Shown here piece by piece: positions 3,154 to 6,554 of a DNA stretch of 64,000 nt. Made by a program: the position numbers and the translations under genes. The notes beneath the pieces are model-generated. The model saw only the letters and a list, made by a program, of their open reading frames with translations, made no database searches and had not been told where the DNA came from. Within the stretch, counting starts at the first letter, position 1. Every line of letters starts with the position of its first letter. This stretch comes from a virus, in IMG/VR virus record IMGVR_UViG_3300033233_000010, positions 32,001 to 96,000 of that record; one strand, written 5' to 3'.

Positions 3154-4008
3154 GTGACGGACGCGAAACGACCGCTGCCCTATCTCATCGCGCGCATCGC
3201 CCACGACGGCAGGCCGTGGCCGGATGACGGCACCTTCGATAAGATCGCGGCGTCCAAGGGGGCCATCCTCGGCGATGACGGTTGGTTCACGCGCGGTCGA
3301 CGCCGAGGCCGGTGGTATCTCGACGTGTCGCTGGCGAACTACGCGCCGATCATCGTGGCGCGCGAAAGGCTCAACGACATCCGCGCGCTCGAAGACCTGC
3401 GTTACCGCGCACAAGTCCACGTCGAGAGGGTACTGGAGCCGCTCTATCAGAAGTCCATCGCTCGGCTCCGGGCAGCTGACGACCCGCGGATCGTCCGCGG
3501 CGACAGGATCATGCGGATCGAGTTCACCAAGGACCACGTCTACTCGTCGGAGAGCTTTCCTACCGAGCGGGAGATCAAGGCCCCGGAGAACGCCGGAATC
3601 GTCGACAGGATCAGCGCAATCCCCACCCCGGACCACGAAGACTTCAAGGCCGGAGAGAACTGGCTGTTTCATCAGCGCGGAATCCACGCGGGTCTGTTCC
3701 GCGTGGGTCGCGCGGAGGCGGCGCTTCGCAAGGCGCTCGACCTCTACCGCCTCAAGCACCACCCGAAGGAGATGAGACTCCACTCGGACAGGCGTCCGAC
3801 CTTCGTCTTCATCATCAACGGGCGCTACTACCCGATCGGGCGCGAGGAGTACCAGAAGAACATCGTCATCTGGCCGCAGCTGTCCGACATCGTGGTCAAC
3901 TTAGACAAGGAGAACACGCGTGGCGAAGATCAAAGTAGTGGACGAGCTTCCGCCCGAGGTAGTGGCGATGCTCGCAGCTCTGTACTCGCGAAGCCCGAAG
4001 AGCGTTGA
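3154..4008 (+). CDS. Hypothetical protein
   Basis: 284-aa ORF with strong codon bias; GTG 6 nt after a TAGAAC element. Confidence 0.8.
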   Translation: MTDAKRPLPYLIARIAHDGRPWPDDGTFDKIAASKGAILGDDGWFTRGRRRGRWYLDVSLANYAPIIVARERLNDIRALEDLRYRAQVHVERVLEPLYQKSIARLRAADDPRIVRGDRIMRIEFTKDHVYSSESFPTEREIKAPENAGIVDRISAIPTPDHEDFKAGENWLFHQRGIHAGLFRVGRAEAALRKALDLYRLKHHPKEMRLHSDRRPTFVFIINGRYYPIGREEYQKNIVIWPQLSDIVVNLDKENTRGEDQSSGRASARGSGDARSSVLAKPEER

Positions 4009-4075
4009 CGAGCATCTGGAGCAGGTTCTCAAGCGTGGCCCCGACAAGTTCATGGACGACTACTACGTCGGCTAG
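3920..4075 (+). pseudogene. thyX: Orphaned 5' fragment (51 aa) of thyX
   Basis: AAGGAG RBS then GTG; MAKIKVVDELPPEVVAMLAALYSRSPKSVDEHLEQVLKRGPDKFMDDYYVG* aligns with residues 1-54 of the ThyX at 4915; not in the ORF track (<60 aa). Confidence 0.85.
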
Positions 4076-4112
4076 GCTGGCAGTAGATCGCCTACGCTGT
4101 TAGCCTGTCAAC

Positions 4113-4955
4113 GTGGCCCATCGGATCTTGCCGCAAGAACACGTCCGTCGCGTCATCGAGATACACGGCACGCGTCTTCGTGTCGTAGACCACTACGTCG
4201 ATGCCCACACGAAGATCCGCTACGAGTGCCCGAGGCACGGACGGTTCTGGGCAGCGCCGAAGAACGTAGTCACCAGGCGCTCGGGTTGCCGTCGGTGCTA
4301 CGAAGCGACGGTTGGTCCACGGTGCCGAAAGACCCACGCGGTCTACACCGCGGAGGCGCGTGCCGTCGGGATTCGAGTAATCGACCGCTACGTCACCGCT
4401 CTGACGCCGATCCGACATCGATGCGCTAAGGGTCACACCTGGAGCACGTCACCGAACCAGTTGCTCTCGGGCTATGGATGTCCGCTCTGCGACCGATCTC
4501 AATTCAGGCGCCGCCCAGTTCGAGTCGGGAACCGGGAAGTGATGCTCCAAGGTTCCGAGGGAGTAGCTGTTGCACTCATGCTTGCCGCCGGTGTCGATCC
4601 TGACGACCTGGCGTTCACAACCGCAGAGGGCCGCCCGACGTTCCGATACAGATTCGACGGTCGGGTTCGCGTCTACGTGCCCGATGCCTTTCAGCTTTCG
4701 GTGCGTCAGGTCATCGAGGTAAAAAGCGCGGTAACGCTCGGGCTCTACGACTCGACACTGTTTGCGCAAGTGAAAGCCAAGGCCCGAGCCGTCGTAGCTG
4801 CCGGACTCTCGTATCGGCTGATGGTCATCCACCGGAAGCAAAACATCGACATCGGTTCGAGCTGGTTTCGGTGGTCGTGGCGAACACTTAACACGCGATT
4901 CAGGAGGAAGACCCATGCCCAAGATCGTCGTTCTCGACGGAAACGACGTTCCTAG
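4113..4955 (+). mobile_element. Free-standing putative homing endonuclease (Zn-ribbon repeats plus PD-(D/E)XK-like domain)
   Basis: Two C-x2-H/G…GCxxC repeats (CPRHG…GCRRC, CAKGH…GCPLC) and YVPDAF…VIEVKS; lower GC3; lies between two thyX 5' ends. Confidence 0.7.
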
Positions 4956-6246
4956 CCCGGAAGACGTGGCGATGCTCGCAGCCATGTACTCACGAGATCC
5001 GCGATCGGTGCTCGACCATCTCGTCCAAGTGAAGCAACGCGGCTCGGCGAAGTTCCACGAGCAGTTTTATGTGGGCTACGGTCACAAGAGCATCGGCGAC
5101 TGCGGCTCGACGACGGTCTTCTTCGAGGGTGTCTCGATGTTGGCGGCGAAGGCCGTGCAGGACACCCCGCTGTACAACGGCCAGGAAGCCTCGACACGCT
5201 ACATCGACTTCTCCACACAGCTGATTCTCAACCCGCTCGCAACGCCGGGTGGGAAGGCTGTGCAGGACGCCTGGATGGCGCTCTACGCAGACACCATCGC
5301 GGCGCTCAAACCGCTTCTCGCCGAGCGCTACCCCCGGCAACCAGACCAGAAAGAGTCGGTGTGGACGAAGGCGATCGCCGCCAAAGCGTTCGACATCGGG
5401 CGGTCCCTGATACCAGCCGGCGGAACCACCAACGTCGCGTGGCACGTCAACCTGCGCCAAGCGTACGACCACAGCCGGGAGATGCGGAATCACCCGCTCC
5501 CCGAGATCGCCGGCCTTGGCGTGGGCGGAATCGAATGCCTGAAGGAGAAGTACCCGTCGAGCTTCTCCCACGAGGCGAAGCTCAAGGACGACAAGGCGCG
5601 CGAGAATTACAAGGCGGAGGAGCACTACATCGCGAAGAGCATGACGCGCTTCGCTTACTTCGCCGACACCGACGCCGTAGACGGGTTCTACGCCGACTTC
5701 GGCAAGCTCGACCTCCGCGCGATGGAGCCGCTCGGCGACCTCCTCGCCTCGCGACCGCCGCGGACCGAGCTGCACCAGCGCTTCCGCCAGTACGGGGTGA
5801 TCACGTTCAAGTTTCTCCTCGACTTCGGCAGTTACCGCGACCTCCAGCGGCAGCGGAGCGCTGTGCAGGAGATGCCGCTCCTCTCAATGCGCCACGGCTT
5901 CCACCCGTGGTACATCGAGCAGATGCCGCTCGGAACCGAAGCGCAGATCGCAGCGATCGGCAAGCTGGTCGAGCGGCTCCCAGCCGACGACTTCACCCGC
6001 CAGTACTACGTGCCCATGGGCTTCCGCTGCCCGGTCGTGATGACGTGTCCGCTCCCCTCGGCGGTCTACATCGCCGAGTTGCGAAGCGGGAACACCGTCC
6101 ATCCCACCCTCCGCGTGATCGCGCAGAAGATGGGCGAAGTGCTCAAGAAGACGATCCCCGAGCTGGCGATGCACCACGATATGTCGCCCGACTCGTGGAA
6201 CGTGAGGCGCGGAACGCAGGACATCGTAAAGAAAGCATCGGCGTAG
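4915..6246 (+). CDS. thyX: Flavin-dependent thymidylate synthase, two-domain type
   Basis: GHKSIGD, QEASTRY and RDLQRQR motifs; AGGAGG RBS. Confidence 0.85.
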   Translation: MPKIVVLDGNDVPSPEDVAMLAAMYSRDPRSVLDHLVQVKQRGSAKFHEQFYVGYGHKSIGDCGSTTVFFEGVSMLAAKAVQDTPLYNGQEASTRYIDFSTQLILNPLATPGGKAVQDAWMALYADTIAALKPLLAERYPRQPDQKESVWTKAIAAKAFDIGRSLIPAGGTTNVAWHVNLRQAYDHSREMRNHPLPEIAGLGVGGIECLKEKYPSSFSHEAKLKDDKARENYKAEEHYIAKSMTRFAYFADTDAVDGFYADFGKLDLRAMEPLGDLLASRPPRTELHQRFRQYGVITFKFLLDFGSYRDLQRQRSAVQEMPLLSMRHGFHPWYIEQMPLGTEAQIAAIGKLVERLPADDFTRQYYVPMGFRCPVVMTCPLPSAVYIAELRSGNTVHPTLRVIAQKMGEVLKKTIPELAMHHDMSPDSWNVRRGTQDIVKKASA

Positions 6247-6248
6247 CG

Positions 6249-6554
6249 ATGGCGCCGAAGGTGACTCCCGGCGTCTACCGCCACTACAAGGGGGGCCTCT
6301 ATCGCGTGTTCGGCGTTGCGGACTACACCGGCGAGCACGGCGATGTGTTCCCGAGCGCGCACCACCCGAAGACGGAAGGGTTTCCCGAGGGCGAGAAGCT
6401 CGTGGTCTACATCGGCCTCTACGACAACCCGCGCGGCAACCGCCTTTGCACAAGGCCGGTGCGTGAGTGGGTCGCGAAGCTCGTGCTCACCGCGAAGGAC
6501 GGCTACCCGGGAGGCCGAGTCGTCGAGCAGCGCTACGAGCGGATCGGAGACTAG
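6249..6554 (+). CDS. DUF1653-like protein
   Basis: GVYRHYKGGLYRV…VVYIGLY…TRP signature. Confidence 0.8.
   Translation: MAPKVTPGVYRHYKGGLYRVFGVADYTGEHGDVFPSAHHPKTEGFPEGEKLVVYIGLYDNPRGNRLCTRPVREWVAKLVLTAKDGYPGGRVVEQRYERIGD

Follow-up and report, generated by a model that had tools for sequence, protein, structure and literature searches.

A probable homing endonuclease cassette with its own gene start in a phage thyX gene

How can an endonuclease gene occupy a conserved phage gene, and why should the start of that gene be present twice? The question arises in a stretch of 64,000 nucleotides (hereafter the window; bases 32001-96000 of the 121.8-kb IMG/VR virus record IMGVR_UViG_3300033233_000010, ~64% G+C), in which a 51-codon fragment of the thyX 5' end (the stub) is followed by a zinc-ribbon/PD-(D/E)XK endonuclease gene and then by a complete thyX-like gene (4915-6246, 443 residues) with its own ribosome-binding site (RBS) and ATG. 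As the CheckV completeness estimate for the record is 42%, the source phage is probably very large. The arrangement probably represents a mobile cassette, composed of a homing endonuclease, an RBS and foreign thyX codons 1-54, that was inserted in thyX at the Gly/Tyr of the GYGHKSIGD motif. An earlier reading of the window, made from the sequence alone (the sequence-only reading), had proposed a splicing-free unit of nuclease, new RBS and substitute 5' end joined at ...YVG/Y. All the features that it named were found again in the sequence and in the list of open reading frames (ORFs), the layout recurs in two other viral contigs, and in one of these the working N-terminus is foreign; its interpretation is supported.

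The duplicated thyX start

The 443-residue ORF matches the Pfam family Thy1/ThyX (PF02511; 7.5e-16, 58.9 bits, cut-off 24.8); no NCBIfam model matched it. It has more than 3,500 homologs of ~430 residues (the best one 63% identical), many of them from large phages and Paceibacteria-type bacteria. The subfamily is named FAD-dependent thymidylate synthase in the sources, an activity that is assigned here by homology. The ORF is full length, its N-terminus being aligned to those of all the homologs.

The homologs P0001-P0120 were surveyed by alignment and tree (here and below, FastTree with Shimodaira-Hasegawa (SH)-like supports). A 3-residue indel, together with residues linked to it, divides the N-termini into two types: T1 (...LDGxDVPxPED...) and T2 (...DDx---xPEV...). 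The stub belongs to T2 and the working start to T1, i.e., the indel that separates them is the one that divides the two N-terminus families. Nevertheless, 31 of 54 residues are identical between the stub and residues 1-54 of the full protein (57%, E = 3e-15), with 67% identity at the DNA level, a similarity far beyond chance, which bears out the earlier claim that the first 54 residues are a diverged copy of the stub. The same reading described the new 5' end as recoded; a substitute start it is, but as a diverged and apparently foreign allele and not as a synonymous recoding. The N-termini closest to the stub are those of the T2 homologs P0017 and P0103 (76%) and P0007 and P0012 (73%), and in the tree the stub is placed with the T2 proteins P0103 and P0115 (support 0.74). 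A short-protein search with the stub returned the window's own ORF as the sole match.

The exchange of N-termini seems to extend beyond the window. On the tree of the thyX body, the T1/T2 character switches at least eight times, and discordant pairs are well placed (P0103/P0067, support 0.98; P0010/P0019, 0.95; P0004 with P0008 and P0020, 0.92; P0028 inside a T1 clade, 0.96). This distribution suggests that the N-terminal module of the first ~54 codons has been exchanged repeatedly in the thyX family, homoplasy of the indel being the alternative.

Recurrence and insertion site

Recurrence was found by scanning contig collections with an alignment of the endonuclease. Two viral contigs, L003 (73 kb) and L004 (82 kb), contain a stub, an endonuclease of the same family (62-63% identity) and a full thyX. 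The stub of L003 has 57 codons and ends in ...KFMDQYYTG-TAG; that of L004 carries an internal deletion and ends in ...CVG-TAA. Among 59 viral thyX loci, the endonuclease is present in two (L008 and L009, which are the contigs L003 and L004), and a second thyX start occurs, beyond those two, in one further locus (L022). A DNA search of a phage collection for relatives of the window found none close, single-protein scans of viral contigs for such relatives gave no match, and a scan of genome contigs with the endonuclease alignment yielded zinc-finger look-alikes only.

The three stub-bearing loci fix the insertion site. The pentamer GGCTA is present at both junctions of the window (GGCTA/G at 4070-4075 and GGCTA/C at 5074-5079), in the positions given by the sequence-only reading; it does not, however, pinpoint the site by itself as that reading supposed, for it represents homologous Gly-Tyr codons. 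The site is pinpointed because the stubs of L003 and L004 end at the same codon as that of the window and are followed by the same bases: all three continue as GGCTA(G/A)GCTGG(C/T)A and diverge beyond, the stop codon of each stub being completed by the first base of the insert. Upstream of the working junction, the signature FHE[QKR]FY[VI]G is found in all four DNA-verified carriers, and both full-length stubs (window and L003) read KFMD.YY.G, a stretch that is lost in the L004 stub. The contrast of FHE.FY with KFMD.YY is consistent with the look expected of a cut-resistant and a cut-sensitive allele. A scan of viral contigs for the junction pattern returned L003 and two chance matches (L072 and L073), both with neither thyX nor the endonuclease nearby. 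One DNA sequencing run (contigs, probably of the source sample) returned the same contig, with no alternative joint at the locus, a result that is uninformative on expression and on empty alleles.

The endonuclease also occurs beside thyX-type genes that have no stub. In L005 (a 3.2-kb contig) it overlaps a T1 thyX, and an unrelated gene ends just upstream. In L007:3989-6492 (Ga0334722_10006615), a 430-residue relative with extra zinc-ribbon repeats abuts a different, 404-residue Thy1-family gene through an ATGA overlap; the association of the enzyme family with thyX-type genes is therefore not confined to one subfamily. The start of thyX looks like a hot spot for endonuclease-type genes.

On two distant viral contigs, endonuclease-like genes end directly before thyX (L040:2916-3473 and L063:1486-3432), with no stub detected. 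The gene in L040 matches HNH and endonuclease VII PHROGs, and that in L063 matches phrog_559 (8e-79) and a homing endonuclease PHROG.

Chimeric thyX genes

If the 5' end was replaced, the stub and the body should share one ancestry and the working start should have another, and L003 served as the test of this prediction. Its stub is 89% identical (51/57) to the N-terminus of the homolog P0022 and 67% identical to that of P0009; the working N-terminus of the L003 protein (P0006) reverses the order (68% and 84%, respectively), and the body returns to P0022 (77%, against 60% for P0009). These contrasts are significant in Fisher tests (p = 0.009 and p = 0.0008). In the trees, the L003 body is the sister of P0022 (SH-like support 0.996) and the stub is the sister of the P0022 N-terminus (0.80). 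Judged by these identities and trees, L003 shows a true 5'-end replacement, with a native stub and body and a foreign working N-terminus, and it records co-conversion of flanking target along with the endonuclease. P0022 itself is an uninterrupted protein (...KFMDQYYTG-YGHKSIG). At the protein level, it provides the joined form of fragment and tail that the sequence-only reading had expected in relatives. Of the discordance between N-terminus and remainder that separate phylogenies were to reveal, L003 gives a clear case; in the window, start and body share relatives.

A comparable pattern is found with a different ORF. In L022:2054-4892 (IMGVR_UViG_3300020180_000014), a stub ending in ...GSGKFM precedes a 419-residue ORF and a full thyX, the junction being six codons upstream of that in the window. 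The ORF is non-homologous to the window endonuclease; its only recognisable part is a C-terminal helix-turn-helix as in HNH endonucleases. Compared with the related locus L025 (flanks 84% identical at the DNA level), the L022 stub is 90% identical, the first 139 nucleotides of the working gene 72% and the segment from nucleotide 121 to 270 89%. These identities indicate that a second, different ORF has given rise to the same design, or made use of it, almost at the same site.

Every part of the three carrier loci, stubs included, is 63-81% identical between loci at the DNA level. Since the stubs of the window and of L003 are still open reading frames and the L003 stub is nearer to P0022 than the L003 body is, separate and fairly recent insertions into different alleles are favoured over one ancient, vertically inherited insertion.

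The endonuclease

The identification of the 280-residue ORF as a zinc-ribbon/PD-(D/E)XK enzyme in the sequence-only reading was confirmed by domain matches and by conservation. Pfam returned DUF7487 (2.9e-10), the DUF4379 treble-clef zinc finger and the CapR domain, and the PHROGs matches are endonuclease families. Sixteen close homologs share 57-66% identity with it (the closest is P0122, 66%). Asp191, Glu202 and Lys204 are invariant in all 16, as are Pro190, Val203 and the zinc-ligand columns, so placed that they read as the catalytic motif D ... (D/E)-x-K of PD-(D/E)XK nucleases.

The structure model, built on the homolog alignment (mean predicted local distance difference test score, pLDDT, 88), is consistent with an alpha-beta-alpha restriction-endonuclease core in the nuclease domain. 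P190-D191 and E202-V203-K204 sit on the model strands E192-194 and E199-204. Residues 123-267 of the model match TnsA (Z 7.5, root-mean-square deviation 2.7 over 113 residues) and Vsr (Z 7.1), as well as Hjc and the homing endonucleases I-Bth0305I (Z 5.7) and I-Ssp6803I (Z 4.7); the top VIA-align rows belong nearly all to the restriction-endonuclease-like superfamily, every Z being below 8. Foldseek against the PDB gave no match at E <= 0.001, its weaker matches including PD-(D/E)XK enzymes, and a sequence search of solved structures gave no match.

The enzyme shows the hallmark of homing endonucleases, sporadic presence at a fixed site beside a conserved gene. The 16 homologs stand against more than 3,500 thyX homologs, the genome record contains one copy, and in all five loci for which DNA is available the gene lies directly upstream of, and overlaps, a thyX-family gene. 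The last 13 endonuclease codons in the window are the thyX start read out of frame. In 14 of the 16 homologs the tail [HRK]A.D[RL]R, i.e., an out-of-frame reading of thyX codons 1-6, is kept together with the RFRR-type codons that spell the RBS; the enzyme gene and the thyX start are therefore physically interlocked throughout the family.

The window enzyme lacks the first zinc-ribbon module of L003, L004 and most homologs (280 residues compared with 321-337), and four further homologs are similarly short. Its start codon is GTG, with no visible RBS (positions 4076-4112 compared with L003 and L004).

Proposed mechanism and alternative explanations

Upon insertion of the cassette, the resident thyX start would have been left upstream as the stub, stopping at the junction, and the working enzyme would be translated from the start that the cassette supplies. 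Because the cassette brings its own start and the downstream gene is complete, neither an intron nor an intein would be needed. During mixed infection, the endonuclease would cut cassette-free alleles near ...KFMD.YYVG/YGHKS, and repair of the break would copy from the genome that has the cassette, the stub and the gene body providing the homology on the left and on the right, respectively. The cassette's own start (...FHE.FYVG) would escape cutting.

Introns and inteins are common carriers of homing endonucleases, and the stub, which forms an intact ORF preceded by an RBS, might be exon 1 of a gene spliced at the RNA or protein level. A stop codon ends the stub, however, the endonuclease is read in a different frame, and the downstream gene is equipped with a separate RBS and ATG and a full-length N-terminus. 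No Rfam match was found in positions 3500-6500 at E <= 1 (Rfam is blind to a novel intron class), and neither a ribozyme structure nor in-frame intein blocks were found at the window locus. Splicing of either kind is scarcely credible. The homology and proximity of the stub and the working start would also agree with a local tandem duplication followed by divergence, in which the endonuclease is a later, unrelated insertion or a domesticated gene and no mobile unit exists. This is contradicted by L003 and L022, where the two copies have different nearest relatives; moreover, the indel between the window copies is one that divides two families, and in 14 of 16 homologs the thyX RBS and start are interlocked with the 3' end of the endonuclease gene. 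Such a duplication is very improbable.

A more serious competitor, which is nevertheless considered unlikely, is that an ordinary intergenic endonuclease and an entire foreign thyX arrived together, whether through co-conversion over a long tract or through illegitimate joining, and that the stub is the sole remnant of the resident gene. Several observations weigh on this side and against the arrival of a start alone. In the window, the tree places the body beside P0002 and P0005 (support 0.92), where the new N-terminus also falls, and no relative of the body is more than 66% identical; the closest endonuclease homolog, P0122, sits on a contig equal in length to that of P0005; the stub is of type T2 and the entire working gene of type T1; and L005 and L007 demonstrate that a plain intergenic state also exists. 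As a caution on the cassette reading itself, P0022, known from its protein sequence, is a presumed endonuclease-free allele, and the cut site, immunity, homing and spread of the cassette are deduced from sequence comparison. Replacement of the whole gene leaves unexplained, on the other hand, why the window stub ends at the same codon and bases as that of L003, the body of which is native. It also conflicts with the sliding-window comparison, in which a preference for T1 (0.70 against 0.57) is confined to residues 1-60 and the body is as far from T1 as from T2 relatives. Third-codon-position G+C content (GC3) rises exactly at the junction: the endonuclease (0.70) and the new start (0.72) have lower values than the body (~0.88-0.89) and the upstream gene (0.86), and no 54-codon stretch of the body falls below 0.78. 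Five of 30 long ORFs, however, have an equal or larger GC3 drop in their first 54 codons, another point against the cassette, and the step is suggestive only. For the window itself, arrival of the start alone and of the whole gene with the endonuclease are both live; the incoming tract may have covered the whole gene, as its body and new N-terminus share relatives. The insertion of a cassette with a foreign start remains the probable explanation of the locus.

A broader and more tentative proposal, somewhat doubtful at present, is that the first ~54 thyX codons are a routinely exchanged module, and that the conserved GYGHKSIGD site is contested by a number of endonuclease-type cassettes unrelated to one another (that of the zinc-ribbon/PD-(D/E)XK family, that of the 419-residue L022 ORF and possibly HNH types like those of L040 and L063), each with a cut-resistant start. 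As such cassettes came and went, chimeric thyX genes with no scar would have remained in phages and candidate-phyla bacteria.

Features of the locus

The positions of the individual features are collected in Table 1. Upstream of the stub, a 284-residue ORF (window 3154-4008) has no family match; its sole homolog is weak and lies upstream in L003. It overlaps the stub by 89 nucleotides in another frame and has a low-complexity tail; the insertion may have changed the point at which it truly ends.

Table 1. Positions of features at the thyX locus, numbered from the first base of the window
Feature	Position	Strand	Description
Stub RBS AAGGAG	3907..3912	+	7 nucleotides upstream of the GTG start; read from the sequence
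Putative native thyX 5' stub, stranded	3920..4075	+	GTG at 3920, 51 codons and TAG at 4073-4075; type T2 (DEL---PPEVV); ends in ...KFMDDYYVG and stop
Left junction GGCTA/GGCTGGCA	4070..4082	+	Same bases in L003 (GGCTAGGCTGGCA), nearly the same in L004 (GGCTAAGCTGGTA)
Endonuclease gene, free-standing, 280 residues	4113..4955	+	Two zinc-ribbon modules, then PD-(D/E)XK nuclease domain
Two zinc-ribbon (treble-clef/CapR-like) DNA-binding modules, predicted	4182..4496	+	Residues ~24-62 and 103-128; Pfam PF21817, PF14311; invariant Cys/His columns
Restriction-endonuclease-like nuclease domain (DUF7487)	4494..4913	+	Invariant P190-D191 ... E202-V203-K204
Working thyX RBS AGGAGG	4902..4907	+	Inside endonuclease codons R-F-R-R; RFRR/RFKR tail kept in homologs
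Overlap of endonuclease 3' end and thyX start, dual coding	4915..4955	+	41 nucleotides
Putative cassette-borne substitute thyX 5' end	4915..5078	+	54 codons, long type T1 (DGNDVPSPED); ends in ...KFHEQFYVG/Y
thyX-like gene body	5079..6246	+	GYGHKSIGD motif to stop

Implications

If the proposed cassette is correct, a homing endonuclease can sit inside a conserved phage gene, with no intron, intein or splitting of the gene, by means of a spare gene start. Phage metabolic genes with chimeric N-termini, and short 'pseudogene' stubs that are otherwise hard to account for, would thereby be explained, and a new zinc-ribbon/PD-(D/E)XK endonuclease family would be expected to have two natural targets, one sensitive to cutting and the other resistant. 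The carry-own-gene-start design may be common in large phages. Should the competition among cassettes also prove true, splicing-free homing in which an element carries its own gene end would be a general and as yet undescribed way in which phage genes move and phages compete with one another.

Comparison with known systems

A search of a paper collection for a phage description of an endonuclease with a spare gene start found none. The closest described design is the mobile-ORF (mORF) gene hybrid of fungal mitochondria, and the nearest phage case is the MobA/gene 60 cassette. In the fungal hybrids, known from atp6 of Allomyces macrogynus and from atp6, atp9, cox2 and nad3 of Glomus, the incoming gene, of the LAGLIDADG or GIY-YIG type, supplies a foreign C-terminal end and leaves the native end stranded (PMC3630166, citing Paquin et al. 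1994). As is proposed for the window, an endonuclease gene lies inside a conserved gene and brings a foreign copy of the gene end that it displaces, the stranded native end stays closest to the sequences of relatives, and the insert is not spliced out. A joined copy that is foreign and a stranded copy that is native, the mark of an mORF-type hybrid, are present in L003 and, with the other ORF, in L022. The differences concern the host of the element (an organelle there, a phage here), the end replaced (mostly the 3' end there; here the 5' end with a new RBS and start) and the enzyme (LAGLIDADG or GIY-YIG there, zinc-ribbon and PD-(D/E)XK here). N-terminal duplications linked to intron mobility are described for Tremella fuciformis (reviewed in PMC8393795); there, unlike in the window, introns are involved.

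According to the citing preprint, T4-like phages have in the MobA/gene 60 cassette an element that itself encodes a short copy of the target it displaces (Bonocora et al. 2011, cited in bioRxiv 10.1101/2022.08.31.505936). As summarised there, it resembles the present locus in that a phage homing endonuclease occupies one fixed site inside a conserved gene and a stretch homologous to the displaced target travels along, the MobA insert protecting against self-cleavage. The same summary describes a topoisomerase gene split into two expressed subunits and a 50-nucleotide ribosomal bypass, whereas the gene in the window is unsplit, the 51-residue stub is dispensable and the complete protein is made from the start of the cassette. 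Two expressed polypeptides that assemble, with a bypass, are thus not what the window contains, its downstream ORF being full length.

'Fractured genes' with split inteins are associated with a Vsr-like homing endonuclease family (PMC2677866). There, too, phage or metagenomic DNA has a free-standing enzyme with a restriction-endonuclease-like fold encoded within a conserved gene, and the gene is rejoined by protein trans-splicing; the window has no intein. The structure of I-Bth0305I (3r3p) is the fold match to the window endonuclease noted above, and the window catalytic motif differs in being a canonical D...ExK.

The free-standing T4 endonucleases SegF, SegG and MobE perform intronless homing beside a conserved nucleotide-metabolism gene. 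They spread by double-strand-break repair with co-conversion of flanks, and they lie between genes, with no stranded duplicated end. L005 and L007 resemble this plain intergenic form; the window differs from it by the stranded duplicated gene end.

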